DNA from: a virus
Taxonomy: Duplodnaviria > Caudoviricetes
Virus record (IMG/VR): IMGVR_UViG_2974716960_000001
Location: 13,087-77,086 of that record
Direction: 5' to 3' (one strand)
DNA length: 64,000 bases
Below, one piece after another: positions 21,957 to 58,930 of the stretch. A program made the position numbers and the translations under genes. Within the stretch, counting starts at the first letter, position 1; each line of letters starts with the position of its first letter. The notes beneath the pieces are model-generated. The model saw only the letters and a list, made by a program, of their open reading frames with translations, ran no database searches and was not told the DNA's origin.

Positions 21957-22315
21957 CGAGAACCCGCATTGAACCCGATACCGAAGCTGTCGAAGAACTT
22001 AAGGCCGCGTTAGAGCGGCTTAGGAAGGACGGATGGAACCGTGGAAAGTTTCACGATTTCGCCACAGGCCAGTGCTGTGCTCTTGGGGCATTCGGCCACC
22101 AGTTCCCCACGGACTCGCCGGGCGTTAAGTACCTCGCCTACGCAATCCGCACCCGCAAAGGCGGGCATCCATACCCGGCAGACATGCCCGATATGTCCGT
22201 CGTCATTCGTTTCAACGATGCACATGGCCGCAAGTGGGCAGACGTTGAGGCCGTTTTCCTCGCCGCTATCCGTTACGCGGAAGGTAAAGGCGTCTATGTC
22301 CGAGAAGGCCGTTAG
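21953..22315 (+). CDS. Hypothetical protein (DUF6197-like)
   Basis: GWNRG...CCALGA, FND..GR...V..VF pattern. Confidence 0.6.
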   Translation: MTRTRIEPDTEAVEELKAALERLRKDGWNRGKFHDFATGQCCALGAFGHQFPTDSPGVKYLAYAIRTRKGGHPYPADMPDMSVVIRFNDAHGRKWADVEAVFLAAIRYAEGKGVYVREGR

Positions 22316-22402
22316 GGATAACGTGCTGGCCGCTGTGTCGCTGGCTGCGTTGATCCTGCTCGGTGCCATCGTTCTTAACGACCTGTTCGCGGCGTGGAAC
22401 GT

Positions 22403-22816
22403 ATGAGTACAGCGCCCGTACAGAAACTCGGTTCTATTGCTTCCATAGAACCCGAGAACTACGTAGAGTTATTAGTAGAGGGGGAGGGGATGAGAAAGTT
22501 CCGAGACGTGATCAACGAAGCGCGAAAGGTCGCAATGTTGAATCCACTCGCACGTAACACCGGTAAGGGTTACTACGAGTACGGAGAGCCTTGCTGCTTC
22601 TTCGGTCACGTCTTGGAACGTCTCGGACTTCCCGTCGCCAAATGGGAAATTGCCCTCTTTAACACCTACACACTTGCTGAACTGCCCTGGTTGCATTGGG
22701 GCATCGAAGAACCTAATGAGTATCAGCGGTTATGGATCGCTAAGGTCCAAGCCGCTGCCGATAACGGAGACTCGTGGATTATCGCTATTGCGATGGCGGA
22801 CGCGACTCTCATTTAG
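22403..22816 (+). CDS. Hypothetical protein
   Basis: ORF coupled to upstream small ORF (ATGA overlap). Confidence 0.6.
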   Translation: MSTAPVQKLGSIASIEPENYVELLVEGEGMRKFRDVINEARKVAMLNPLARNTGKGYYEYGEPCCFFGHVLERLGLPVAKWEIALFNTYTLAELPWLHWGIEEPNEYQRLWIAKVQAAADNGDSWIIAIAMADATLI

Positions 22817-23026
22817 ATTTCAGCCCTGCCCCTGAGGCTGACTAACAATAATCAGCGGCACTTAGTAACAAGTTGTTGACCTCTACGAAGTAACTCCGTG
22901 GTCGGAGCGTCTGTGTTTAGTGTCCAGACGGCAGAGTGGTTCGCCTGCAAGTAAGTCAGCATGAGTACGTATCTCACACACGTCTACGTCTGACGTTATT
23001 CAGCGTCAGGGGTGTGTGTGGGGGTA

Positions 23027-23132
23027 GCGATACGCGGTTGGTACCTGAGGGTGACCGCATGAAAACGCTCTGGCGGGGTCCGTGGCCTTATCTACGGGTC
23101 AGAGCATCCCAGTTCGATTCTGGGGTATCGCA
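23027..23132 (+). ncRNA. Atypical tRNA-like RNA
   Basis: GCGATAC/GTATCGC 7-bp acceptor stem plus A, CCCAG-TTCGATT-CTGGG T arm, enlarged D-like and anticodon-like arms; intergenic. Confidence 0.6.
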
Positions 23133-23282
23133 CGAGGCCGGGAGGTTGAGGCGCACGGCACTAACGGGCATTAGTGCTTAGGCGCGGGACGTAAGGGTGT
23201 GGCGTTCGCGCTGCCTTGTTTGCGCTCCCTCCCGGCCATTCTCTTAACCACCGATCACCACATCACCACGAAAGGGCGCGCT

Positions 23283-23639
23283 ATGGCGGTTATCTATCTG
23301 GGTGAACCCACCGGGCCACGACTGCGGAGCGTGAGCCGGGAGAAGGAACGCGAGCTGGACGAATGGCTCTCAGACGCGCTTGAGCACGGTAGCCCACGTG
23401 ACCACGACATTCCCGTCAACTTCACACGCGCGCTAAGCGCCTTAGCTAAGCGGCGCGGAATCCAGTTTCACTTTAACTCCGACCGTATGCGGGTACGCGG
23501 CGAAGTGGTTCTGGGTAAGAACTTGCCCGGCTGTGTTGGCGGGTCGAAACGAAAGGTAACTGCGGGCAACGAACGCGCAGAGGCCGCGAAACATGGGCAG
23601 CGCGTCGAACCCTGGAATATGAGGGATTGGCGTGAATGA
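23283..23639 (+). CDS. Hypothetical protein
   Basis: AAGGG RBS and ATG at 23283. Confidence 0.6.
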   Translation: MAVIYLGEPTGPRLRSVSREKERELDEWLSDALEHGSPRDHDIPVNFTRALSALAKRRGIQFHFNSDRMRVRGEVVLGKNLPGCVGGSKRKVTAGNERAEAAKHGQRVEPWNMRDWRE

Positions 23640-24663
23640 GTTGACACCAACGGTACAAGCGCTGTACCGTGATGACTGCGAGGAGTTCAGAAAGTGGCAA
23701 AGCAGTTTTCTTGCCCGCTGGAATGTGGAGCCTCCTACTCCGAGGAGTACCAGCTTCACCTTCACGAATACGCATCCGAAAAAGGCATCCTTCCGACGTG
23801 TGGTCGGGGGGCCGAACGAAAGGCGCGCTATGCCGGAGGCGATCACGCTGCAATCGGACTTGAGGCAGCCTGAGAAGCTAATGCTCGCCGGGGACTGGCA
23901 CGGCAATCTGCCGTGGGCGTTCAAGGCGATCCACTTCGCTAAGGCGAACGGCGCAGACACGATTCTGCATGTCGGCGACTTTGGCTGGTGGGCACCGACT
24001 GAGCGGACGTTCCAGTTCCTGGGGGAGGTCGACAAAGAGCTTAAGGCTGTCGGTATCGACCTTCTGTGGGTCGACGGTAACCACGAGGACCACGCCTTTT
24101 GGCACCAGTTCAATGCGCCGAAGGCGTATCCGCAGACGTTCATGTCTTACTCAAGCATCACGCACTTGCCGCGTGGCTTCCGGTGGAAGTGGTGGGGCGA
24201 CGTGTGGATGGCGCTGGGTGGCGCTCATTCGGTCGACCGCTCATTCGCCGTTGAGGGTGAGTCATGGTGGCCGGGCGAGTGGTTGCAGGACGACCAGCTT
24301 GAGTACGCCATGCGGGACGGCAAGGTCGACATAATCGTTGCCCACGACGCGCCGACCAACGTCACCATTCCCGGCATCGTGCCAGGTAAGGCGATTTACC
24401 TCCCTATCGGAGGGATGAAGCGCCGGGTTCCGCAGGTCGACTTGCTTAAGGCCGAGGAGCACCGCGCCCGTATCCAGCAGGTGGTGGACGCGGTTAAGCC
24501 GGTGGAGTTTTACCACGGCCATTACCACCGCGCTTACCAGTCCTTAGCGCGCCATGAGGGCGGCGGTTACACGTTGTGCCGTGGCCTGGATAAGGACGAA
24601 ACCACGATGGCGAAGAACACCCATTTCATCACCGGAGGGACGCAGGATGACGACGATGACTGA
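23632..24663 (+). CDS. Metallophosphoesterase (calcineurin-like); true start may be 23830
   Basis: GDWHG, GDFG, GNHE, HD, GHYH motifs. Confidence 0.9.
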   Translation: MNELTPTVQALYRDDCEEFRKWQSSFLARWNVEPPTPRSTSFTFTNTHPKKASFRRVVGGPNERRAMPEAITLQSDLRQPEKLMLAGDWHGNLPWAFKAIHFAKANGADTILHVGDFGWWAPTERTFQFLGEVDKELKAVGIDLLWVDGNHEDHAFWHQFNAPKAYPQTFMSYSSITHLPRGFRWKWWGDVWMALGGAHSVDRSFAVEGESWWPGEWLQDDQLEYAMRDGKVDIIVAHDAPTNVTIPGIVPGKAIYLPIGGMKRRVPQVDLLKAEEHRARIQQVVDAVKPVEFYHGHYHRAYQSLARHEGGGYTLCRGLDKDETTMAKNTHFITGGTQDDDDD

Positions 24664-27608: not shown

Positions 27609-29033
27609 ATGACCACCTTTTTGCAGAGCCTAAACGGCCAGCTAAACACGACCCGCACGGAGAACGGCGATAAGGCGCATAAGTCGTCGCTTGATCCGGT
27701 GGTCGATTACTTCGGCTTGGCGGGCGCTATGCGTGACCGCGCCGAGGCGAGCGCCGACCTGTTTGAGAAGGCGTACCGTGCTGACCCGCAGGCTGCGGTG
27801 CGGACCCTGTTCTATCTGCGTGATGTGCGCGGGGGCCAGGGGGAGCGCGACGTATTCCGTGCCGGGCTTAAGCGCCTGTTCCATATGGACCCTTACACCG
27901 GTATGGCAGTTGTGGAGCACACGCCGTTCTATGGGCGCTGGGATGACTTGTTCATCTTCGGGTCTCAGGTTCCGGCGGGTATCTCGGCACTTATCCGTGA
28001 GCAGTGGGCCGAGGACGTTGACGCTTACGAGCGCGGCGAGAAGGTCTCACTGTTGGCTAAGTGGCTGCCTTCCGATAAGGCTGCGAATAAGGAGCTGGCT
28101 ATCGCTGTCCGGACGGTGCTGGGCCTGACGCAGCGCGAGTACCGGCAGACGCTTAGCGCGCTGCGGGAGCGGATTGGCCTGCTTGAGCACGCTATGTCGG
28201 ACGGCGTTTACGCCAACGTCGACTACAGCAAGCTCCCGGCGCAGGCGCACCGTAAGCACGTTAAGGCGTTCCGGCGCAACGACGGTGAGCGGTACCAGGC
28301 GTTCCTAGACGCGGTTGACCGTGGCGAGGCCAAGGTGAACACGTCGACCCTGTATCCGTACGAGCTGTACGACTTGTGCCGGTCGGACCCGAACGCCGCT
28401 GACACGCTGTGGAACAACCTGCCGGACTACACGCGGCCCGGCCAGGACGCGATCGTTCTAGCGGACGTTTCAGGCTCCATGTGGGGTCGGCCTATGTCTG
28501 TGTCTGTGTCGCTGGCTTTGTACTTCGCAGAGCGCAACACAGGGCCGTATAAGGGCTACTTCATGACGTTCGCCTCTACGCCTGCGCTGGTGCAGGTGAC
28601 CGGTAAGACGTTGCAGCAGAAGCTCCACGCTATCGAGCACTCGACTGGCTGGTGTGGGTCGACGGACTTGGAGGCCGCGTTCAAGGCGATCTTGCGCGCC
28701 GGTAAGCAGTCGGGCACCGTCCCGGCCACGCTCTACGTCGTGTCGGACATGCAGTTCAATCAGGCGCTTAACCACGCTGACCTGAGCGTGTTTGAGTCGG
28801 CCCGGCTGGACTTCCAGCGGGCGGGCCTTGAGCTGCCGCATGTCGTGTTCTGGAACGTCAACGCGCGCCACGATCAGCTTCCGGCCACGATCCTTGACGG
28901 GAACGTGACGCTGGTGTCTGGCTTGGCGGCTACGACTTTCGGCATGGCCGTGGAGGGTAAGACCCCTCGTGAGCTGGTGAATGACGTGATCAATAGCGAG
29001 CGGTACTCGCAGATCAACGTTTCCGGTTCCTAA
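27609..29033 (+). CDS. Ro60/TROVE-like RNA-binding protein (DUF2828-type) with vWA domain
   Basis: TENG..AHKSS...VDYF, DPQAAVRTLFYLRDVRGGQGER, SLLAKWLPS, LYPYEL; MIDAS DVSGSM, T (STDL) and D (SDMQF). Confidence 0.85.
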   Translation: MTTFLQSLNGQLNTTRTENGDKAHKSSLDPVVDYFGLAGAMRDRAEASADLFEKAYRADPQAAVRTLFYLRDVRGGQGERDVFRAGLKRLFHMDPYTGMAVVEHTPFYGRWDDLFIFGSQVPAGISALIREQWAEDVDAYERGEKVSLLAKWLPSDKAANKELAIAVRTVLGLTQREYRQTLSALRERIGLLEHAMSDGVYANVDYSKLPAQAHRKHVKAFRRNDGERYQAFLDAVDRGEAKVNTSTLYPYELYDLCRSDPNAADTLWNNLPDYTRPGQDAIVLADVSGSMWGRPMSVSVSLALYFAERNTGPYKGYFMTFASTPALVQVTGKTLQQKLHAIEHSTGWCGSTDLEAAFKAILRAGKQSGTVPATLYVVSDMQFNQALNHADLSVFESARLDFQRAGLELPHVVFWNVNARHDQLPATILDGNVTLVSGLAATTFGMAVEGKTPRELVNDVINSERYSQINVSGS

Positions 29034-36323: not shown

Positions 36324-37181
36324 ATGGCCGTTCATCTGAAGGTCTATAACGAGAAGCTAGGCACCATTAACGGTGCTGCGGAGCCGTTCACCTTCCCCGG
36401 CGGGGAACTGCACCTTAGGAGCATTCTTCCGCCGCTGATTGATGGGACGTGGATTGCGGACGTGCGGGGCGCTGCCACCGACGACCTGGTGACAGCGCTG
36501 CTGCTGGCCGACCACGCAGCGCAACAGGGCCAGCCGTTCGTGTTGTTCCTGCCGTACCTTCCGGCTGCTCGCGCGGACCGGGGGACGCCGTTCGGCCTGC
36601 GGGTGTACGCGGACATGATCAACAACTGCGCGTATGCGGAGCACGTCATTGTCATTGACCCGCATTCGCCGGTCGCTAAGCGGCTGGTTAGGAACATCTG
36701 CCCGCTTGACCCGCTGCCGCTGCTGGACAGGGCGCTAGAGAGCCAAGGGCATTGGCGGTACGACGCAATCATTGCGCCAGATAAGGGCGCAGTGGACCGG
36801 GCCGAGAAGGTCGCTAAGCATTATGGCCTAGACCTGGTTGTCTGCGACAAGGAACGCGACTTTGATACGGGCCGGATTACCAAGTACAAGGTTCCGGCTC
36901 TGTCCACTAAGGGCAAGTACCTGGTGATAGACGATATCTGCGACGGCGGCGGCACATTCGCACTGCTTGCTAGCGAGTCACTTATCGCTAAGACGAACTT
37001 GGACCTTTGGGTCACGCACGGCATTTTCTCCGGAGCTGCTACCAACCTCCGGAATTACTACGGGCGCATTATGACGACCGACTCTCATCCTGGTCATAAC
37101 CGGGTGGGTGTGGCTACGTCGATTGTGCCGACTTACACATACATGCACCAAGCGATGGTTGGCCTTAAGGGGATAGGGTGA
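36324..37181 (+). CDS. Ribose-phosphate pyrophosphokinase-like enzyme (candidate Adps)
   Basis: FPGGE, PYLP.ARADR, DPHS, PDKGA, VIDDICDGGGTF, THGIFS. Confidence 0.9.
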   Translation: MAVHLKVYNEKLGTINGAAEPFTFPGGELHLRSILPPLIDGTWIADVRGAATDDLVTALLLADHAAQQGQPFVLFLPYLPAARADRGTPFGLRVYADMINNCAYAEHVIVIDPHSPVAKRLVRNICPLDPLPLLDRALESQGHWRYDAIIAPDKGAVDRAEKVAKHYGLDLVVCDKERDFDTGRITKYKVPALSTKGKYLVIDDICDGGGTFALLASESLIAKTNLDLWVTHGIFSGAATNLRNYYGRIMTTDSHPGHNRVGVATSIVPTYTYMHQAMVGLKGIG

Positions 37182-38662
37182 GCACGAAATTTGCGCCGGT
37201 CGCGGCGCTATTCGAGACGGACGCATACAAGCTGGGTCACGTTGACCAGTACGCGCTTAGCGGCGACGTGACGCGGGTGTATTCCAACTACACCAACCGC
37301 AAGTCTCGGCTGCCGGGCGTCGATAAGGTCGTGCATTTCGGGTTGCAGGCTTACATTGCTAAGCACCTGATGGAGGCTTTTGAGCCGTTCTTCGCGGCGA
37401 AGGAGAATGAGGTTGCCGCGCTTTACGAGGAGCGGGTTGCTCAGATTCTCGGGCCGGATGCAGCGCACTCGATTGGCTCGGACCATATTCGCCAGTTGCA
37501 TGGGCTTGGGTTCCTGCCGCTGCGGTTCAGCGCGGTGCCTGAGGGGACGCTAGTGCCTATCGGGGTGCCGTCGTTCACGGTGGAGAACACCCACGAGTCG
37601 TTCTACTGGCTGACCAACTACATCGAGACCGGCCTTAGCGCCGGGGTGTGGCAGGCCAGCACGTCCGCGACCATCGCTAAGCAGTACCGGCGGGTGCTTG
37701 AGAGCGCAGCTCTGCGGACCGGTGCGGACCTGGCGGGCGTCGACTGGCAGTGCCATGACTTCTCATATCGGGGTATGTCGTCGCATGAGAGCGCGGCAGC
37801 GTCGGGCGCGGCTCACCTGTTGAGCTTTACCGGTACGGACTCGCTGGTGTCGCTGGATTGGATCGACCGTTACTACGGCGGCGAGTACATCGCTGGGTCG
37901 GTGCCCGCTACCGAGCATTCGGTGATGTGTACCGGCATTGAGACGGTCGGGGAGCTTGAGACGTTTAAGCGCCTGCTGGACCTGTACCCGTCCGGCATCG
38001 TTAGCGTTGTCAGTGACACGTTCGATCTTTGGCGCGTGCTAACCACTTATTTGCCGACGCTGCATAAGCAGATCGTGGGCCGGGACGGGAAGCTGGTCAT
38101 TCGGCCTGACTCCGGCGATCCAGAGAAGATCATTTGTGGCGATCCGGACGCGCCAGTTTCCTCTAACGAGTGGATGGGCGTGCTGGGGCTGCTCTACGAG
38201 CACTTCGGCGGCAAGAAAAACGCTGCCGGGTTCATTGAGCTTGATCCGCACGTCGGTGTGATTTACGGCGACTCAATCACGGTTGAACGCGCTACGAGCA
38301 TCACCGCGCGTATGGAGAAGCTGGGCTACGCGTCGTCCAACGTGGTGTTTGGCGTGGGCAGCTTTACGTACCAGTACAACACCCGCGACACGTTCGGGTC
38401 CGCGATGAAGGCGACGTGGGCTGAGGTCGACGGCAAGGGTTACAACCTGCTCAAGAATCCAGTGACCGACGACGGGACTAAGAAGTCTGCGACGGGTCGG
38501 CTGGCGGTGTTGGAGAACATCTGGGGCGATCTGGCGCTCAAGCAGAACGCCACGATTGAGGACGAGAAGGCGAGCTTGCTCCGTCCCGTTTGGGAGAACG
38601 GAAAGTTTCTAGGCCGGCAGTCGTTTGCGCAGGTCAGGGCGGTTCTGGCCGCTCAGCGGTAG
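37178..38662 (+). CDS. Nicotinamide phosphoribosyltransferase-like enzyme (candidate Namat)
   Basis: TDAYKLGH, HDF.YRG, VPATEHSVM, SVVSDTFD, IRPDSGDP, IYGDSI, FGVGS; GTGA coupling to upstream gene. Confidence 0.92.
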   Translation: MSTKFAPVAALFETDAYKLGHVDQYALSGDVTRVYSNYTNRKSRLPGVDKVVHFGLQAYIAKHLMEAFEPFFAAKENEVAALYEERVAQILGPDAAHSIGSDHIRQLHGLGFLPLRFSAVPEGTLVPIGVPSFTVENTHESFYWLTNYIETGLSAGVWQASTSATIAKQYRRVLESAALRTGADLAGVDWQCHDFSYRGMSSHESAAASGAAHLLSFTGTDSLVSLDWIDRYYGGEYIAGSVPATEHSVMCTGIETVGELETFKRLLDLYPSGIVSVVSDTFDLWRVLTTYLPTLHKQIVGRDGKLVIRPDSGDPEKIICGDPDAPVSSNEWMGVLGLLYEHFGGKKNAAGFIELDPHVGVIYGDSITVERATSITARMEKLGYASSNVVFGVGSFTYQYNTRDTFGSAMKATWAEVDGKGYNLLKNPVTDDGTKKSATGRLAVLENIWGDLALKQNATIEDEKASLLRPVWENGKFLGRQSFAQVRAVLAAQR

Positions 38663-38748: not shown

Positions 38749-39675
38749 ATGACGACCTTATGGGCGATGCGGGGTTATCCCGGCTCTGGTAAATCCACCA
38801 GGGCGCGTGAAATCGCTGACCAGAACGGCGCGGTGGTTGTGTGCCGCGACGATCTGCGCAACATGCTTCATGGCACCTATTTCTCGGGCGTCAAAGAGCG
38901 TGAGGATGAGGTCACGGTTGCGGAGCGGGCGCAGGTTAGCGCGTTCCTTAAGGCCGGTATCTCTGTGGTGGTAGACGCTACTCACTTGGAGCCGTCTTAT
39001 CTGCGTAAGTGGGCGAAGATGGCGAGCATGTACGGCGCTGACTTTAAGCGCGTTGACGTTGACACTGCGGCCCACCTTTGCATCGTGCGTGACTTTAAGC
39101 GCGGCGAGGCCGGAGACCGGACTGTCGGCGCGGAAGTGATTAACCGGATGGCTAAGCGTCACCCGATTAAGAACTGGCCGAACATTCAGGCTCCCCCGAC
39201 GTTCGACCCTAAGCCGGTCGAATGGATTGAGGGTCTGCCGGAAGCCATCATCGTTGATATCGACGGCACGGTGGCTCACATGACGGGCCGGTCACCGTAC
39301 GACTACACGCAGGTTCACACCGACGTGGTTGACGAGCAGATTCGGTGGCTGGTCGGCCTGGTGGACTACTACGGCGGTCCGAACGGTGTCCACGTGCTGA
39401 TCGTGTCGGGCCGGGACGACTCGTGCCGGGTGGCGACTCAGGAATGGTTGTGGAAGAACGCCATTCCTTACGACGAGCTGCACATGCGGCCTACTGGCGC
39501 TAAGGATGAGCACGGTAACAAGCTGCCGGATTACCTGGTCAAGTACGACCTGTTCGACCAGAACATTCGCGGCAAGTACAACGTGCGCTTTGTGTTGGAC
39601 GACCGGGACCAGGTTGTGAATCTGTGGCGGTCGCTGGGCCTTAAGTGCCTGCAAGTGCAGCCGGGGGACTTCTAA
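38749..39675 (+). CDS. pnk: Polynucleotide kinase/phosphatase
   Basis: GYPGSGKS P-loop, RDDLR, VVVDAT; HAD DIDGT, SGR, DDR.QVV.LW. Confidence 0.92.
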   Translation: MTTLWAMRGYPGSGKSTRAREIADQNGAVVVCRDDLRNMLHGTYFSGVKEREDEVTVAERAQVSAFLKAGISVVVDATHLEPSYLRKWAKMASMYGADFKRVDVDTAAHLCIVRDFKRGEAGDRTVGAEVINRMAKRHPIKNWPNIQAPPTFDPKPVEWIEGLPEAIIVDIDGTVAHMTGRSPYDYTQVHTDVVDEQIRWLVGLVDYYGGPNGVHVLIVSGRDDSCRVATQEWLWKNAIPYDELHMRPTGAKDEHGNKLPDYLVKYDLFDQNIRGKYNVRFVLDDRDQVVNLWRSLGLKCLQVQPGDF

Positions 39676-42848: not shown

Positions 42849-44129
42849 GTGAGCTTTGACGCGCCGGAGAACGCTAACTACGCGGCGACAATCGTCAAGC
42901 TGCCGCAGGGGCTTCTCCTAGAAGGTCTGGACAACCTGGTGGGCGTGCCAATGTTCGGTTACCAGGCGCTCACCCAGAAAGAGGGCTACGAGCTGGGCGC
43001 GCTGCGTGTGCTGTTCATGGCTGAGACGCAGCTTGACCCCGACTACGCGCGGGAAAACAACCTGTTCCGTGAGGCCACGCTGAACCGGGACGCCAGCGAG
43101 ACCGGCTACCTAGAGCCGAATGCCCGCGTGAAGGCGCTCCGGCTGCGTAAGCACCAGTCAGACGCGCTGTTGATGCCGCTGTCGTCGCTGGCCTACACCG
43201 GCTACGACGTGTCGGCGCTCAAGCCGGGCGATACGTTCGACAAGCTGAACGGCCACACGATCTGCCGTAAGTACGTGGCGAAGGGTAAGAAGCAGGCCAC
43301 GCAGGGTCAGCCCAAGGTTCGTAAGCAGGTTGACGAGCGGCTGTTCCCGAAGCACTTGGACACGGAGCATCTGTTCCGGAACCTGCACTACTTCCGTGAC
43401 GCTAAGCCTGTCGTGGTGACGCAGAAGTTGCACGGCACGAGCTGGCGCGGCGGCAATATCCCGGTTAACCGGACTAAGGGTCGGTTTGAGCGGTTCCTGA
43501 ACCGTCTGGGCATTGCCACTCCGGACACTGAGTACAAGCATGTGTTCGGCTCTCGGAATGTGGTTAAGGGCCGGTCGGATAATAACCACTTCTACGAGTC
43601 TGATTTGTGGGCGAAGTTCGGCGAGAAGCTTGAGGGCAAGATTCCGGAGAACTTCATCATTTACGGCGAGCTTGTCGGGTGGGTTAGCGAGGATGAGCCG
43701 ATCCAGCGGGGTTACACGTACGACCTGCCGCCGGGGCAGTGCGAGCTTTACGTGTACCGGGTGGCGACGGTGAACCCTAAGGGTGTTATCGCGGACCTGT
43801 CATGGGAAGGCGTTAAGGACTTCTGCCGGACGTTGGAACTCAAGACGGTGCCGGAGTTCGGTTTCGACGTTGAGCATGTGCCGAACTTTGAGGCCGAGGA
43901 GCGATTCGTCCTGGCTTACCAGGAGACGTACATGGACTTGCGTTACGCGGACGCTTACCCCAATGGCGGGTATCTGCCGCTGAGTGACCGCAAGACGGTT
44001 GACGAGGGTATCTGCGTCCGTATCGAGGGCCAGGTGCCGCGCGTGCTCAAAGCCAAGTCGCCGAAGTTCCTTGAGCATGAGACTAAGCAGTTGGATAAGG
44101 GAGAGGTTGACCTTGAGTCGGTGGCGTAA
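42849..44129 (+). CDS. ATP-dependent RNA ligase (Rnl2-like)
   Basis: VTQKLHGT motif I, YGELVG, EGIC, K.KS..FL motifs; N-terminal OB-like domain. Confidence 0.88.
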   Translation: MSFDAPENANYAATIVKLPQGLLLEGLDNLVGVPMFGYQALTQKEGYELGALRVLFMAETQLDPDYARENNLFREATLNRDASETGYLEPNARVKALRLRKHQSDALLMPLSSLAYTGYDVSALKPGDTFDKLNGHTICRKYVAKGKKQATQGQPKVRKQVDERLFPKHLDTEHLFRNLHYFRDAKPVVVTQKLHGTSWRGGNIPVNRTKGRFERFLNRLGIATPDTEYKHVFGSRNVVKGRSDNNHFYESDLWAKFGEKLEGKIPENFIIYGELVGWVSEDEPIQRGYTYDLPPGQCELYVYRVATVNPKGVIADLSWEGVKDFCRTLELKTVPEFGFDVEHVPNFEAEERFVLAYQETYMDLRYADAYPNGGYLPLSDRKTVDEGICVRIEGQVPRVLKAKSPKFLEHETKQLDKGEVDLESVA

Positions 44130-49891: not shown

Positions 49892-49964
49892 GCCACCTTA
49901 GCTCAGTTGGTAGAGCAGCGCCTTCGTAACGCGCAGGTCAGCGGTTCGATTCCGCTAGGTGGCT
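49892..49964 (+). tRNA. tRNA-Thr(CGT)
   Basis: GCCACCT/AGGTGGC, D arm AGCTCAGTTGGTAGAGC, loop TTCGTAA, T arm GGTTCGATTCC. Confidence 0.92.
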
Positions 49965-50152
49965 CGTAGTAAACATAATTGAATAGGGAGATTGATATGA
50001 CTGAAAAAGACCCGATCAAGGTTTCTAAAGACAAGCTTGACGTTGTGCAGGAGCTTCGGGATCGCACGGCGTGGCCTAAGGCCGAGGTTCCAGAGCAGGC
50101 GAAGAAGCCCGCGAAGGTCGGTAACGCTTAAGTTTGTCCCCTTCGGGGGTTT

Positions 50153-50226
50153 CTGGCTGTAGCTCAACTTGGTAGAGCGCTGGCTTTGGGTGCCAGGGGT
50201 TCGGGGTTCAAATCCTCGCAGCCAGA
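50153..50226 (+). tRNA. tRNA-Pro(TGG)
   Basis: CTGGCTG/CAGCCAG, loop TTTGGGT, TTCAAAT T loop. Confidence 0.92.
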
Positions 50227-50478
50227 CAATGGGTCGTGTCCCCACCGATTGAGATTGTGGAGTGTCACCGTGAAGGTGGCAGGGGCCAAATGGTTGGTTC
50301 TGGCAGAGATACCCGATCACCGCCCTCGGGCCAGGCGGTATATAAGTGGGCCATCTTCTTTAGGGATTACCCCGCCTCACGGCGTGCGGCCCCTCGGTTA
50401 GTCCACCGATTGGACGGCAGGAGACAATGCGGAAACGTAGTTAGCAGGTTGGGCGCTGTTTCTCCGTATAGCCCGCAT

Positions 50479-50551
50479 AGCTCGGTAGCTCAATTGGTAG
50501 AGCAGCGGTCTCCAAAGCCGCAGGTTCCCCGTTCGAGTCGGGGCCGGGTTG
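50479..50551 (+). tRNA. tRNA-Trp(CCA)
   Basis: Loop CTCCAAA, T arm CCCCG-TTCGAGT-CGGGG. Confidence 0.9.
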
Positions 50552-50584
50552 CAAAGTGAAGTACAGGCCGTATACAGTGTTGGC

Positions 50585-50797
50585 ATGTCCAAGTCACTCA
50601 ACTGGCACCGCGTCTATAGCGGCGAGGGTGCCGATTACGTCGCAGACGGTGCGAGCCAAAACTATCTGGCTGTGCGCTATGCGTACGGGTGGGAGCTGTT
50701 CTACCTGCCGCATGGTGAGACGCATCCGACGTGTGTTGGTGATGGTCCGTGGCATCGCCTTAGGGACGCTAAGGCGCACGCTCAAGGGATGGAATAA
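50585..50797 (+). CDS. Hypothetical protein, probably leaderless
   Basis: TTGCAA-18-TACAGT promoter 6 nt upstream of ATG; LRDAKAHAQ C-terminal motif. Confidence 0.6.
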   Translation: MSKSLNWHRVYSGEGADYVADGASQNYLAVRYAYGWELFYLPHGETHPTCVGDGPWHRLRDAKAHAQGME

Positions 50798-50800
50798 GAA

Positions 50801-51130
50801 ATGAGCACTGAGTTCTGGTTGGGTATGGCCTGCATTCCGGTGGTCGTCGCGCTGTTGGCGTTGATGGCTGCCGCGATCATGGGGCTGATATACGCCTCGT
50901 CGCAGTGGGATTTCGGTACGTACAAGCTCTGGCCGCACCGGACTAAGCCGGAGGTCATTGCAGCCACGGTGGCTTGCGCTAAGTCGCGCCGGTATCTGTG
51001 GATTCCCGGCTGGCATGTGGTGATCTGTCGGACGACTTTGTTTAACCGTGATGACGCTGAGGATATTGAGCGTCACCGGAAGGTTCAGTGGGCTGTGCGT
51101 GATGCGTTGAACGTCGACCCATTTGATTGA
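50801..51130 (+). CDS. Membrane protein
   Basis: N-terminal TM helix. Confidence 0.55.
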   Translation: MSTEFWLGMACIPVVVALLALMAAAIMGLIYASSQWDFGTYKLWPHRTKPEVIAATVACAKSRRYLWIPGWHVVICRTTLFNRDDAEDIERHRKVQWAVRDALNVDPFD

Positions 51131-51140
51131 TGCTTTATTA

Positions 51141-51214
51141 GGAACCGTAGCCCAATTGGCAGAGGCAGTAGGCTTAGACCCTATCCAGTGTGCGTTCGAG
51201 TCGCACCGGTTCTA
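51141..51214 (+). tRNA. tRNA-Leu(TAG), short variable loop
   Basis: GGAACCG/CGGTTCT, loop CTTAGAC, T arm GTGCG-TTCGAGT-CGCAC. Confidence 0.85.
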
Positions 51215-51288
51215 CGCGAGGTAGCTTAAGTAGTAAAGCCCCCGACTGTGACTCGGGTGATTCGGGTGCAAGTCCCGGCCTGTCGCCA
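51215..51288 (+). tRNA. tRNA-His(GTG), imperfect acceptor stem
   Basis: CCCGA-CTGTGAC-TCGGG anticodon arm; C discriminator; two acceptor mismatches. Confidence 0.7.
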
Positions 51289-51289
51289 T

Positions 51290-51364
51290 TGACCGCTAGC
51301 ACAATTAGGCAGTTGCGCCGGAATCTGACTCCGGAGGTTCCAGGTTCGATTCCTGGGTGGTCAG
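51290..51364 (+). tRNA. tRNA-Gln(CTG)
   Basis: TGACCGC/GTGGTCA, CCGGA-ATCTGAC-TCCGG, GGTTCGATTCC. Confidence 0.88.
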
Positions 51365-51479
51365 CGTTAACCTCCCCCGCGCCTTCGAGGTTGCCGGGCC
51401 GCTGAAAGAGGCGGTTAAATATCCGGTGGTAAGTCCATCGGGGAGTGCCGTGTTGAGGGGCGTAAAGACACGGACCCAA

Positions 51480-51553
51480 GTGCTAGTAACCCATGTTGGC
51501 TGGGTGCCACTCTTCCAAAGTGGATTTCGCGGGTTCGATTCCTGTCTAGCACA
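51480..51553 (+). tRNA. tRNA-Gly(TCC)
   Basis: GTGCTAG/CTAGCAC, CCACT-CTTCCAA-AGTGG. Confidence 0.88.
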
Positions 51554-51667
51554 CGTTACGGGTGCCGGTGAAGGCCGGTCACACAGGGTGCAGTCACAAC
51601 GCTGCCGAGTGGAGCAATAGAGCGGTCCCCTGTTGAAATGAGGCAATAACGCGCCTCCCGTATCCAA

Positions 51668-51743
51668 GCCTCGTTAGCTCAGTTGGTAGAGCAGCCGACT
51701 CTTAATCGGCGGGTCACAGGTTCAAGTCCTGTACGGGGTACCA
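51668..51743 (+). tRNA. tRNA-Lys(CTT) with encoded CCA
   Basis: GCCGA-CTCTTAA-TCGGC, GGTTCAAGTCC, 3-prime ACCA. Confidence 0.93.
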
Positions 51744-51744
51744 C

Positions 51745-51833
51745 GGAGAGTAATGCAGCGGGGGTGGCCCGCGACCGGCCTTGAAAGCCGGGTAGCCGTT
51801 ATGGAGCTTGGGGTTCGATCCCTCTGCTCTCCG
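51745..51833 (+). tRNA. tRNA-Ser(TGA)
   Basis: GGAGAG/CTCTCC, loop CTTGAAA, long variable arm. Confidence 0.88.
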
Positions 51834-51875
51834 CTTATGAACACGTACTCATGCTGACTTACTTGGGGGTGGTCT

Positions 51876-52565
51876 GTGTCTAAGGTGCTTAGCCTTTACG
51901 GCACGAGGTCATCTAAGTATTGGTCCGAAGCTCCGGCGAAGATGGACGCGCTGAATCTGCGTGCGATCTTCCCGTCGAGCAATCCGTTCGGTTTCCCTGA
52001 TCTTGAGCGGTGCGATTGGGTGCCCGACTACCTGGGGGCGTGGCATCTCCCGCGTCAGCGGGAGCGTGCAGCTCGGGAGAACGGGGCGATCCACTTCTTT
52101 TTGGACGACTACCGTTTTGAGACGGCGTTTACAAGCCCTGAGAGGACGCTGGGGCGAGTTACAGCGGTCGGTGGTGCCCTGACACCAGATTTCAGTTTGT
52201 GGCGCGATATGCCGCGTGCAGCGCAGTTGTGGAACGTGTACCGGTCCCGCTGGTGTGGCGCGTACTGGCAGAGCCACGGCGTGAACGTGATTCCTACGGT
52301 CTGCTGGGCACGCTCAGACACGTTCGACTTCTGTTTCGAGGGTCTGCCTCGGGGCGGACCTGTGGCCGTGTCTGCGGTCGGTGTGCGGGCGAAGCCGGAG
52401 GATCAAGCGCTGTTCCGTGAGGGCCTGGCCGCGATGGTCGAGCGTCTTGAGCCGGCAATTTTGCTTAGTTACGGGCGGCTTGTGCATGTGGAGGGTTTGG
52501 ACCTGCCACCTGTGCGGGAGTTCCCGACGTTCTGGGATGAGCGCCGTAAGGCGGTTAACGCTTAG
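51876..52565 (+). CDS. DUF4417-family protein
   Basis: IHFFLDDYRFE, TPDFSLW.DMP.A.Q.WN.YRSRW.GAYWQ..G..VIPTV.W. Confidence 0.85.
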   Translation: MSKVLSLYGTRSSKYWSEAPAKMDALNLRAIFPSSNPFGFPDLERCDWVPDYLGAWHLPRQRERAARENGAIHFFLDDYRFETAFTSPERTLGRVTAVGGALTPDFSLWRDMPRAAQLWNVYRSRWCGAYWQSHGVNVIPTVCWARSDTFDFCFEGLPRGGPVAVSAVGVRAKPEDQALFREGLAAMVERLEPAILLSYGRLVHVEGLDLPPVREFPTFWDERRKAVNA

Positions 52566-52573
52566 GGGGTGTG

Positions 52574-52924
52574 ATGGGCGGTCGCGGCGGTGGTGGCGGT
52601 GGCCCGGTGAGCACCAGGTCATCCACGGTGACGCTGTATCACAGGACTTCTGCGGATGCGGCTCGCGCGATTGTGGATGGTGGGTTTCGTCCGCAGTTCC
52701 GGCCTGGCATGGATAAGTCTTATCGGGATGAGAACTCGCAGTATGGGTTCTTTAGTAAGACGGTTAAGGGCCAGGAGGGTTACGGCCAGAGTGTTGTGGC
52801 TGTGGAGGTTCCGAAGTCTGCTGTTGAGCGTGATCCGTGGTCGGGTCATGTTCGGGTGCGGGTGGAGGAGCTTAGTAACGCAAACTTCCGGCACTATGAG
52901 GGTAAGCGCCGGAAGAAGCGGTAA
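52574..52924 (+). CDS. MGGRG-leader protein with ADP-ribosyltransferase-like domain
   Basis: MGGRGGGGGG leader; TLYHRTS..AA..I...GF, GFFS, YG..V..VEV resemble the ART fold. Confidence 0.6.
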   Translation: MGGRGGGGGGPVSTRSSTVTLYHRTSADAARAIVDGGFRPQFRPGMDKSYRDENSQYGFFSKTVKGQEGYGQSVVAVEVPKSAVERDPWSGHVRVRVEELSNANFRHYEGKRRKKR

Positions 52925-52925
52925 T

Positions 52926-52996
52926 GCCGTTGTGTCCGAGTGGTTAGGTGCCAGGCTGCAAACCTGGTTAGTCCGGTTCGATTCCGGGGGACGGCT
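52926..52996 (+). tRNA. tRNA-Cys(GCA)
   Basis: CCAGG-CTGCAAA-CCTGG, TCCGG-TTCGATT-CCGGG. Confidence 0.88.
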
Positions 52997-52997
52997 C

Positions 52998-53168
52998 TTA
53001 TGCGACAGGCATTCCGAACCGGATGGTTGCTTTAGCCATTCGGCGGTAGCGGTCCTTACCCTTGGGTCCAAGGTCGTCCCAAGTCGTGTGACCGGGGATG
53101 AGTTCGCCTTTGTCGCCGGTCGGCAGGCTGGCTAGGAATACCGACTTGGCGGCGGCGTCCTGGTCCAT
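52998..53168 (-). CDS. Small hypothetical protein
   Basis: WDDL...KDRYRRMAKA phage-type motif; part of a run of tiny leftward ORFs to 53438. Confidence 0.55.
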   Translation of the reverse strand: MDQDAAAKSVFLASLPTGDKGELIPGHTTWDDLGPKGKDRYRRMAKATIRFGMPVA

Positions 53169-53455
53169 CACTCGTCGTCCCAGTCGTTGGGCTTGATGAT
53201 GCCCTTGTGCATGAGCCAGCCCTTGAACTTGAAGTAGACGCCTACGGGCCACAGGAAACGGCCTAGACCGGCCCAGCCGGGTTCAATGTCGTCGTGGTCG
53301 TGGGTGCTGCTCATTCTTCCTCCATCCAGATTTCAGAGTCGGGCAGGATGCCCTGTAGGTTCTTGACAAGACTGCTCGCCTTATCGTGGTTAAGACCGTC
53401 TAAGACGAAACGGTCGTCGTCTATGGCGTCTTTCATCCATACTGTCCACATGCAT

Positions 53456-53528
53456 TCCTCCGTAGCTCAATTGGCAGAGCGCGCGACTGTTAATCGCGTG
53501 GTTGGTGGTTCGAGTCCACCCGTTGGAG
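53456..53528 (+). tRNA. tRNA-Asn(GTT)
   Basis: CGCGA-CTGTTAA-TCGCG, GGTGG-TTCGAGT-CCACC; two acceptor mismatches. Confidence 0.85.
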
Positions 53529-53529
53529 C

Positions 53530-53721
53530 TTATTGGCGCTTAATCGTCACGCTGGCTATATGGCCGTGCTTCTCGATTTCGTGCTGTACCGCCTCGGCTG
53601 CTAGTTCACGTATGAACGTCTTAGCGGTGAGCGGTCCGACTAGCTTAAAGTCCTCTATCAACTTGTCTAGGTCCATTGTGCAGACGAGTGTGATGAGGAA
53701 TTGGCCTTTAGGGCGTTGCAT
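53530..53721 (-). CDS. Small hypothetical protein
   Basis: ATG 3 nt after tRNA-Lys discriminator. Confidence 0.45.
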   Translation of the reverse strand: MQRPKGQFLITLVCTMDLDKLIEDFKLVGPLTAKTFIRELAAEAVQHEIEKHGHIASVTIKRQ

Positions 53722-53724
53722 GGG

Positions 53725-53797
53725 TGCCCCCACAAGGGATCGAACCTTGGACCCGATGATTAAAAGTCACCTGCTCTGCCAACTGAGCTATAGGGGC
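53725..53797 (-). tRNA. tRNA-Lys(TTT)
   Basis: Minus strand GCCCCTATAGCTCAGTTGGCAGAGC...GACTTTTAATC...GGTTCGATCC. Confidence 0.92.
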
Positions 53798-58383: not shown

Positions 58384-58866
58384 ATGGGCGGTCGCGGTGG
58401 CGGTGGTACCGGCGGCGGCAAGGGCGGCAATAAGGGCGGTGGCAGCGATCTAACTGTCGATAAGCGGCCTGCTGTGGACGATGCTGCTGAGAAGCACAGT
58501 GACCCGAACGCGGCTGCTGACGCTCTTGGCCTTACTGGGTCCGACAAGGAACACTTTGTGAACGGCGCTAACGCTGAGGGTAAGCGGATTCCTCGCATTG
58601 GGCGCGATGAGAGCAAGATTATTAAGCCAGCGGATGCGGCTAAGTTGCTCGCTGCACACAAGGCCGCTGTGGTCGCGTATGAGCGCAAGTATGGGCGCGG
58701 TGCGGCTCAGGCGTACTCACGTGGTGCGTACTGGTCTCTGGTGCGGTTTATCAAGACGGTTATGGCTGTGTCGTCCACGGTCACGCAGGCGGGTAGTGCT
58801 CCGGCAATGGCGGCTGTGAATGCGGCCATGCTGACTGCCTACTGGGTGGATCGCGCGAAGCGCTGA
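58384..58866 (+). CDS. Second MGGRG-leader protein
   Basis: AAGGGGG RBS, MGGRGGGGTGGG leader; lone plus-strand gene in a minus-strand region. Confidence 0.65.
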   Translation: MGGRGGGGTGGGKGGNKGGGSDLTVDKRPAVDDAAEKHSDPNAAADALGLTGSDKEHFVNGANAEGKRIPRIGRDESKIIKPADAAKLLAAHKAAVVAYERKYGRGAAQAYSRGAYWSLVRFIKTVMAVSSTVTQAGSAPAMAAVNAAMLTAYWVDRAKR

Positions 58867-58930
58867 TTTTCCCAATTTTCCAATTTTCTCAATTCCGCAA
58901 TTTTCCAATTTTGCAATTATGCCAATTCTT
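58867..58930. repeat. AT-rich degenerate tandem repeat (seven CAATT units)
   Basis: TTTTCCCAA TTTTCCAA TTTTCTCAA TTCCGCAA TTTTCCAA TTTTGCAA TTATGCCAA TT. Confidence 0.85.

Follow-up and report, generated by a model that had tools for sequence, protein, structure and literature searches.

A non-decoding tRNA-shaped RNA module with lineage-specific central cassettes in Cluster L mycobacteriophages

The species 1 and 2 RNAs of phage T4 (rnaC and rnaD) are tRNA-like molecules with an enlarged middle, encoded within the tRNA cluster. tRNA punctuation and tRNA-like processing signals occur in mitochondrial polycistrons, in MALAT1-mascRNA and in the TMERs of gammaherpesvirus 68, and in the engineered 'tRNA scaffold' of Ponchon and Dardel the acceptor, D and T arms are reportedly kept while the anticodon arm is swapped for a structured RNA insert. 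In phage T5, RNA1 and RNA2 (NC_005859, 30501-30644 and 32959-33083) are annotated in the record as 'tRNA-like stable RNA with unknown functions'; no such phage RNA is known to have been given a function since the first work on T4 and T5. A further group of tRNA mimics is that of the YrlA RNAs, in which the T and D arms are conserved (Chen et al. 2014, PMC4201824); the YrlA RNA of Mycobacterium smegmatis carries a 7-bp acceptor stem, is cleaved by RNase P and has CCA added to it, and mycobacteriophages with a Ro-like gene encode YrlA-type RNAs (PMC4201824). These RNAs are circularly permuted, in the order T arm, closed acceptor and D arm, and their ends form the Ro-binding stem with GNCGAA (PMC4201824). 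Here we describe a tRNA-like element at positions 23027-23132 of a 64,000-nucleotide (nt) stretch of viral DNA (hereafter the window), which corresponds to positions 13087-77086 of a virus record of 77,086 bp (IMGVR_UViG_2974716960_000001), and we show that it belongs to a family of conserved RNA modules in Cluster L mycobacteriophages.

The conserved tRNA-like frame

The acceptor stem of the element pairs GCGATAC (23027-23033, plus strand, like all features given below) with GTATCGC (23125-23131), which is followed by the discriminator A at 23132, so that the 3′ strand with its discriminator occupies 23125-23132. The D-like arm (23034-23058) directly abuts the acceptor stem without the 8-9 linker of a tRNA and, in the minimum free energy (MFE) fold, consists of a 6-bp outer stem, a GGT bulge, a 3-bp inner stem and a TGAG loop. 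It is followed by a single-stranded 8-nt linker, ATGAAAAC (23059-23066), and by a long central arm (23067-23105) of 8 bp, a 5-nt bulge, 5-6 bp and a loop of the form CC-NN-AT; the strands of this arm are GCTCTGGC and GTCAGAGC, interrupted by a GGGGT bulge, and then CCGTGG and CTACGG. The T arm, CCCAG-TTCGATT-CTGGG (23108-23124), occurs once in the whole window. An earlier note, made from the letters of the window alone, had described this arrangement, in which the D-like arm abuts the acceptor stem and a central arm in two parts precedes a canonical T arm; all of the bases that it quoted lie at the coordinates that it gave, and the fold it proposed is the MFE fold. Folding of 23027-23133 yields this cloverleaf at -48.8 kcal/mol (z = -3.9), a stability reached by none of 200 shuffled sequences, whereas the opposite strand is less stable (-37.3 kcal/mol, z = -2.7). 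The tRNA-like element is thus more than a chance fold.

Two features of a canonical tRNA are present, namely a 7-bp acceptor stem with a discriminator and a 5-bp T stem with a TTCRA-type T-loop, while the 5-bp anticodon stem with a 7-nt loop (U33 and the anticodon) is absent and a 14-bp bulged arm with a loop of 6 or 8 nt stands in its place. ARAGORN found 12 tRNAs at 49892-53797 of the window but none at the element, and none at it in 10 relatives either, and a search of Rfam returned no match for the element at the gathering threshold or at E<=10. The proposal of the earlier note that the element is a tRNA mimic rather than a decoding tRNA was therefore borne out, since neither finder calls it, the position of the anticodon is taken by the 14-bp bulged arm, and relatives carry unrelated sequences there. 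Because no such central sequence has the canonical 5-bp/7-nt anticodon arm, the element cannot decode. Other assignments were considered and rejected. A transfer-messenger RNA does not fit, as ARAGORN reports none, the body is 37-82 nt long and pair 3-70 is G-C in all copies, without G3:U70. For an intron-containing tRNA, removal of any segment restores no 17-nt anticodon arm, and the inserts are unrelated among relatives. For an attP core, the integrase gene lies 3 kb away and a complete, covarying 5′ half is retained. Our literature searches returned no description of a Cluster L tRNA-like RNA. The element is a non-decoding tRNA-shaped RNA module, of the kind represented by the phage tRNA-like stable RNAs.

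We then asked how the element has been kept among related phages. Over the 2.5 kb around it, Cluster L mycobacteriophages match the window at 88-89% identity; the 73 records concerned, among them Bazzle, Archie, Tourach and Faith1, are without exception Mycobacterium phages. The copies compared were the window and the homologous stretch from 16 other Cluster L genomes: LeBron for subcluster L1; Faith1, Crossroads, Archie, Bazzle, Tourach, Loadrie and one IMG/VR record for L2 (Faithunavirus); DyoEdafos, Chaser and Bromden for Bromdenvirus, with Douge grouping alongside; and Whirlwind, Snenia, Lolly9 and MiniMac for L3 (Lumosvirus). The frame, by which we mean the constant arms, was present in 17/17 copies, and RNAalifold, run unaided on 11 of them, recovered the same acceptor, D-like, central and T helices. 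A covariance model built from the frame only (R1) finds all 17 copies at 26.8-126 bits. In the R1 alignment, which was fitted to the model and hence leans towards the structure, 97.6% of pair cells hold standard pairs, compared with 30-54% when the partners are slid by 1-3 columns; both-sided changes occur in 10 of the 21 pairs, and the observed covariation score was matched by none of 500 shuffles. An alignment made with MAFFT only gave 93.5% pairing and double changes in 11/34 pairs.

The individual stems behave in the same way. Both strands of the acceptor and T stems are paired in 100% of cells, the former over 16 distinct copies. Acceptor pairs 6 and 7 are changed on both sides in L3 (A-U to G-C, and C-G to A-U or G-U), and the D-like outer stem GCGGT/ACCGC becomes GTAGC/GCTAC in that subcluster, with three pairs altered on both sides. 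The T stem exists in the versions CCCAG/CTGGG, CCCGG/CCGGG, CCAGG/CCTGG, TCCGG/CCGGA and CCGGG/CCCGG, which are compensatory in three of its five pairs, and its loop, TTCGATT elsewhere, reads TGCAAYC in L3. The GG dinucleotide in the bulge of the D-like arm is retained in every lineage, and a number of conserved G-U pairs restrict the fold to the plus strand. At the ends of the element, position -1 is occupied by A or G, LeBron has G as its discriminator, and the bases after the discriminator are CGA in the window and CCA in the L3 and Bromdenvirus copies, where the spacer reads CCA(A); these lineages thus encode a CCA end, which is found in 8/17 copies. The stems therefore hold in related phages, as the earlier note had anticipated for a genuine RNA, and these findings show that the tRNA-like frame is a real, selected RNA structure.

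This evidence bears on the idea that the locus has no function as RNA and is either a tRNA pseudogene in decay or a feature of the DNA, for instance a hotspot of recombination or a repeat bound by protein. The boundaries of the central sequence do behave as recombination points, and in several relatives the T arm is identical to that of the phage tRNA-Gln (both described below). However, 10/21 frame pairs show compensatory double changes, the 97.6% pairing holds across lineages with flanks of only 50-80% identity, the G-U pairs tie the fold to the plus strand, and transcripts of the region are over-represented in an RNA library. We consider this explanation very improbable.

The family has so far been found only in Cluster L mycobacteriophages, although the searches were made on samples and with patterns and are not proof of absence. 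Two frame patterns matched only Cluster L isolates in IMG/VR; the 5′ frame pattern had no match in genome or metagenome contigs, and the pattern for the T arm and acceptor found in such contigs just chance matches to coding sequence and ordinary tRNAs. Model R1 returned one tRNA-Leu and one spurious coding-sequence match from 151 Mycobacteriaceae genomes, and blastn of 23027-23243 against 401 Mycobacteriaceae genomes gave chance fragments only. Separately, two metagenome contigs (L052:6823-6935 and L068) carry tRNA-Gly(GCC)-like genes with a 43-48-nt insert after the anticodon (37/38), which are chance matches unrelated to the family.

Outside the family, the frame model scores highest on a class II tRNA-Leu (27.7 bits). 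Together with the perfect acceptor stem, the discriminator A, the canonical T-loop and the CCA encoded in some lineages, this raises the question of whether the element could be an aminoacylated, non-ribosomal tRNA, charged by an anticodon-blind synthetase and used as an amino-acid donor or a regulator. Set against this are the lack of G3:U70, the discriminator G of LeBron, a D region unlike that of any tRNA class and the absence of a nearby enzyme that would use such a tRNA, and we give the idea very little credence.

The exchangeable central cassette

In contrast to the constant frame, the region between the D-like and T arms holds at least eight unrelated cassette types across the 17 copies. 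Type A is present in the window, Bazzle, Tourach, the IMG/VR record, DyoEdafos, Chaser and Bromden; type B in Archie; type C in Faith1 and Crossroads; type D in Douge; type E in the Loadrie group; type F in LeBron; type G in Whirlwind; and type H in Snenia, Lolly9 and MiniMac. Identity to the cassette of the window is bimodal, at 94-100% in the seven phages of two genera with type A and 37-50% in the rest, and it is uncoupled from the identity of the flanks: in Archie the flanks are 94-97% identical to the window and the cassette 45%, whereas in the Bromdenvirus phages the flanks are 63-81% identical and the cassette 94-98%. The linker ATGAAAAC is part of type A and is found only in copies of this type, with 1-6 nt at the same place in the others. 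From these comparisons, the constant arms appear to act as recombination or exchange points for the middle cassette. In Bazzle, Tourach, Archie and Bromden, the T arm of the element matches that of the phage tRNA-Gln (51332-51356), CCAGG-TTCGATT-CCTGG, letter for letter, a hint that the element and genuine tRNA genes may exchange sequence.

Within type A, the substitutions preserve the helices (three in Tourach and one in Chaser), and the two middle bases of the loop vary (UU, GA, AU or GU) in otherwise identical arms. Types D and E are nested tRNA-like bodies (L010:541-613 in Douge and L011:542-606 in Loadrie) with a normal D arm, an arm whose 'anticodon' loop has 8 nt or is degenerate with 7 nt, and a UGCAAAU T-loop; the two are 75% identical to each other, with compensatory changes in the T stem. 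Their scores against the Rfam tRNA model are 36.2 bits for Douge and 26.2 bits for Loadrie, and although the Douge body reaches the Rfam threshold it is not called by ARAGORN. Neither the type A nor the Douge cassette occurs outside this locus in 50,697 phage records. Since a pure processing role would leave the stable helices and the retention of type A over two genera unexplained, the cassette probably has a function of its own.

One such function would be that of a decoy, which the earlier note had suggested together with a possible role as substrate for the RNA-repair enzymes of the phage. MenT-type toxins exist in mycobacteria, and the element could be a sponge for host defence toxins that target tRNAs, either enzymes acting on the acceptor end (MenT/AbiEii-type nucleotidyltransferases or CapRel-type pyrophosphokinases) or anticodon nucleases, with the diversity of the cassettes reflecting an arms race. 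The large investment of the phage in tRNA biology (12 tRNAs, a T4-like polynucleotide kinase and an RNA ligase), the conservation of the acceptor/T half, the fast turnover of the cassettes and the variable loop dinucleotide in otherwise identical type A arms are all consistent with this possibility. On the other hand, the cassettes are unlike anticodon stem-loops, having arms of at least 14 bp, loops of 6 or 8 nt and no U33, which weakens the version based on anticodon nucleases; no toxin or partner was identified, and the element is in every Cluster L phage from the same host strain, yet the cassettes differ. A decoy is therefore possible but, in our judgement, rather unlikely.

The cassette might alternatively contact a protein of the phage itself. 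A gene for a Ro60-like protein with DUF2828 and VWA domains (27609-29033) lies on the same strand 4.5 kb downstream of the element, and type A contains GGUCCG, which is near to the vertebrate Ro-binding motif GGUCCGA, suggesting a Y-RNA-like partner that would tether this protein to another factor through its tRNA-like half. Y RNAs are typically encoded on the strand of the Ro60 gene and within about 4 kb of it. However, the element has the normal order of tRNA arms and not the rotated T-acceptor-D order of YrlA, its ends form an acceptor and not a Ro-binding stem, no Rfam family, YrlA included, matches at E<=10, and the very arm that would bind the protein lacks conservation. We regard a Y-RNA role as very unlikely.

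The surrounding non-coding locus and its expression

The earlier note had placed the element 27 kb from the tRNA cluster and after cro-like and xis-like genes. The distance is 26.8 kb and the gene order agrees with the annotation of Faith1, but the description of the element as an orphan has to be withdrawn, because it is one module of a conserved, multi-domain non-coding locus of approximately 470 nt that all of the Cluster L subclusters examined share. Its counterpart in Faith1 is an unannotated gap of 470 bp that separates genes 45 and 46; the integrase, repressor, cro-like and helix-turn-helix genes lie upstream of this gap and a metallophosphoesterase gene downstream, and no database record annotates any feature under the element.

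The 5′ part of the locus is formed by a domain of three abutting hairpins that ends in a 23-nt antisense segment at 22948-22970 (M1, 22876-22970). M1 is kept in L1, L2, L3 and Bromdenvirus, and its hairpins 1 and 3 show compensatory changes. Between it and the element lies a variable hairpin region with a G-rich leader (M2, 22971-23026), the sequence of which differs among close relatives. The antisense segment is the perfect reverse complement of 51843-51865, a site 9 nt after tRNA-Ser(TGA) in the tRNA cluster. The same pair exists as exact inverted copies of lineage-specific sequence in the other phages, with a length of 27 nt in LeBron (L1), 25 nt in Whirlwind (L3), 23 nt in Faith1 (L2) and 22-23 nt in three Bromdenvirus-type phages, so that the two sites co-vary in four lineages. 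As both sites are on the plus strand of rightward transcripts, their RNAs could form a perfect duplex, which is predicted to be long enough for RNase III. It is also possible that the pair is a DNA-level site read in both orientations.

On the 3′ side the element is followed by a second structured RNA (M4, 23136-23242), with a 10-bp GC closing stem, inner hairpins, a conserved ACGTAAGGGTGTG motif and a short 3′ tail. M4 is conserved in 17/17 copies, in which it measures approximately 102-110 nt and starts 2-4 nt after the discriminator; its closing stem and inner hairpin covary and its ACGUAAGGGUGUG-type motif is invariant.

Four RNA-seq runs from 2019 hold a relative of the Crossroads/Faith1 type, for which the evidence consists of assembled contigs with k-mer depth. 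Runs X3, X5 and X6 gave one contig of 31-35 kb each, in which local depth cannot be read, and the depths that follow are from X4. The upstream gene region (22000-22520) has a depth of 1242 and the region 23220-24660 a depth of 1562, whereas 22491-23158, which covers the upstream domains, the tRNA-like element and 22 nt beyond it in one 674-nt contig, has a depth of 7431, that is, 5-6x that of the flanking genes. The 60-nt contigs at 23189-23242 reach 25000. These data show that the non-coding locus of the relative is transcribed and accumulates above its neighbours.

Contigs of X4 also join 23240 or 23242 back to 23136 (depths 1442 and 6500), and a loose contig end reads ...CCTCCCGGCCATTCTTG ahead of 23136. 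Judged from these joints, the 5′ end of M4 would be fixed at 2-3 nt after the discriminator, while its 3′ ends are ragged. The contigs of this one run of a relative offer a lead that M4 may be present as head-to-tail joined copies, either circles or concatemers, although the joints could also stem from template switching by reverse transcriptase or from the assembly.

With regard to transcription, a consensus scan for a promoter belonging to the locus found no sigma-70-type site, and early rightward transcription in Crossroads starts upstream of gene 41 and spans genes 41-48, the gap included (PMC6426596). The upstream gene, a homologue of Faith1 gp45 (phrog_572), was called from GTG at 22394 (22394-22816), although its start is probably ATG 22490. 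A strong ribosome-binding site (GGGGGAGGGG) accompanies this ATG (22480-22492) and suggests that it is the real start, the PHROG match covers the longer protein from residue 34 onwards, and a sequencing-adapter junction in run X4 marks an RNA end at 22491. Downstream, 23283-24663 encodes a 118-aa protein (phrog_5916) and the metallophosphoesterase (23632-24663). Searches of Pfam, PHROGs, NCBIfam and a protein atlas gave no function for the flanking small proteins, and the phosphoesterase has no sequence relative in the PDB. Its homologue in LeBron (gp46) could not be transformed into M. smegmatis (PMC13148394), and an abundant structured RNA ahead of a toxic gene recalls an RNA-antitoxin arrangement, by analogy.

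Elsewhere in the window, a cluster of genes for RNA and nicotinamide adenine dinucleotide (NAD) functions comprises the Ro60-like DUF2828/VWA 'RNA-binding protein', the T4-like polynucleotide kinase, the RNA ligase and a phosphoribosyltransferase plus NAMPT-like pair; besides the Ro-like gene (27609-29033), they map to 38749-39675, 42849-44129 and 36324-38662. At 58863-58929, an AT-rich patch in this GC-rich genome contains six overlapping copies of an 8-9-nt unit (CCAATTTT-like) and may be an iteron or protein-binding array.

Possible function and comparison with known systems

We propose that the element is a non-decoding tRNA chassis that is excised by the tRNA-processing enzymes of the host and thereby punctuates the transcript and displays its cassette, a proposal for which belief and doubt are about evenly balanced. 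The constant part is the 'top half' of a tRNA, with the 7-bp acceptor stacked on the 5-bp T arm and its T-loop, and the D-like arm offers its GG for the elbow. The element would be transcribed within the early rightward operon and cut at both of its putative ends by host tRNA-processing enzymes. This cutting would punctuate the non-coding transcript of approximately 470 nt. It would free the upstream antisense domain, which could form a 23-27-bp duplex with the tRNA trailer in the phage's own cluster, and the downstream structured RNA of approximately 105 nt, which would accumulate to a high level. What remains would be a stable, tRNA-shaped RNA that shows a lineage-specific cassette in place of the anticodon arm, presumably for binding, and the constant arms would double as recombination points for exchange of the cassette.

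This reading is the best supported because the conserved part of the element is precisely the one read by RNase P, by RNase Z or 3′ exonucleases, and by the CCA-adding enzyme, because the part that the processing enzymes ignore is exchangeable, and because the element directly adjoins its neighbouring RNAs and a CCA end is encoded in several lineages. It is thus plausible that the RNA is matured like a tRNA, through RNase P, RNase Z and CCA addition, and the decoy and Y-RNA readings are weaker. Several points nevertheless weigh against the chassis. The RNA evidence is made up of contigs from one run of a relative and not of read-level ends of the element, and one contig crosses the 3′ boundary to 23158, which means that precursors exist. 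The base at position -1 is not the U preferred by RNase P, tRNA enzymes might recognise the element poorly given its oversized D-like arm and the lack of an 8-9 linker, and a pure processing signal leaves the helical cassettes, and the retention of type A across two genera, without explanation.

A more elaborate scheme can be drawn from the same observations, in which the locus would be a tRNA-punctuated non-coding operon of a temperate mycobacteriophage with three products: an antisense RNA that pairs perfectly over 23-27 bp with the tRNA trailer and thereby steers the processing of that tRNA, for instance by RNase III; a chassis whose exchangeable cassette confers specificity, as an aptamer or decoy for a host factor or a defence protein; and M4, circularised in vivo, possibly by the phage ligase, and accumulating as a stable circle. 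We think it unlikely that the scheme as a whole is correct.

The family would give more than 60 deposited genome records a conserved RNA gene that their annotation lacks, and it is tractable, since these mycobacteriophages are well studied, engineerable and grow on M. smegmatis. Its natural variation is already a cassette-swap experiment, and the element is physically linked to two further conserved RNAs, for one of which the predicted target, in the phage tRNA cluster, is clear. If a processing or decoy mechanism is true, the phages would be using the shape of a tRNA beyond decoding.

Compared with a canonical tRNA (RF00005), the element shares the 7-bp acceptor stem, the 5-bp T stem, the TTCGATT loop and the discriminator, but has no anticodon arm and no 8-9 linker and carries an oversized D-like arm. 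Unlike YrlA, it keeps the normal order of a tRNA, with an acceptor formed by the ends. It resembles the tRNA-like processing signals in being a tRNA-shaped module within a longer transcript, the excision of which would define the ends of neighbouring RNAs; it differs from them in its bacterial host and its structured non-coding neighbours, and its cleavage by RNase P or RNase Z is putative. The engineered tRNA scaffold has a similar logic of an insert at the anticodon arm, whereas the Cluster L element is natural and its D arm is remodelled.

RNA1 and RNA2 of T5 are the architecturally closest described RNAs, as they are likewise phage-encoded and combine a tRNA-type terminal stem, D and T arms with an enlarged, non-anticodon middle. 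Against model R1, however, they score no better than ordinary tRNAs, and there is no homology. The T5 RNAs lie inside the tRNA cluster, whereas the Cluster L element is 26.8 kb away from it, in the immediate-early operon and within a larger RNA, and it differs from the T5 and T4 RNAs in its hairpin-bearing D-like arm without an 8-9 linker. Among phage tRNA-like stable RNAs, the family is of added interest for the exchange of its cassettes and for its linkage to a putative antisense RNA directed at the tRNA cluster and to a highly abundant neighbouring RNA.

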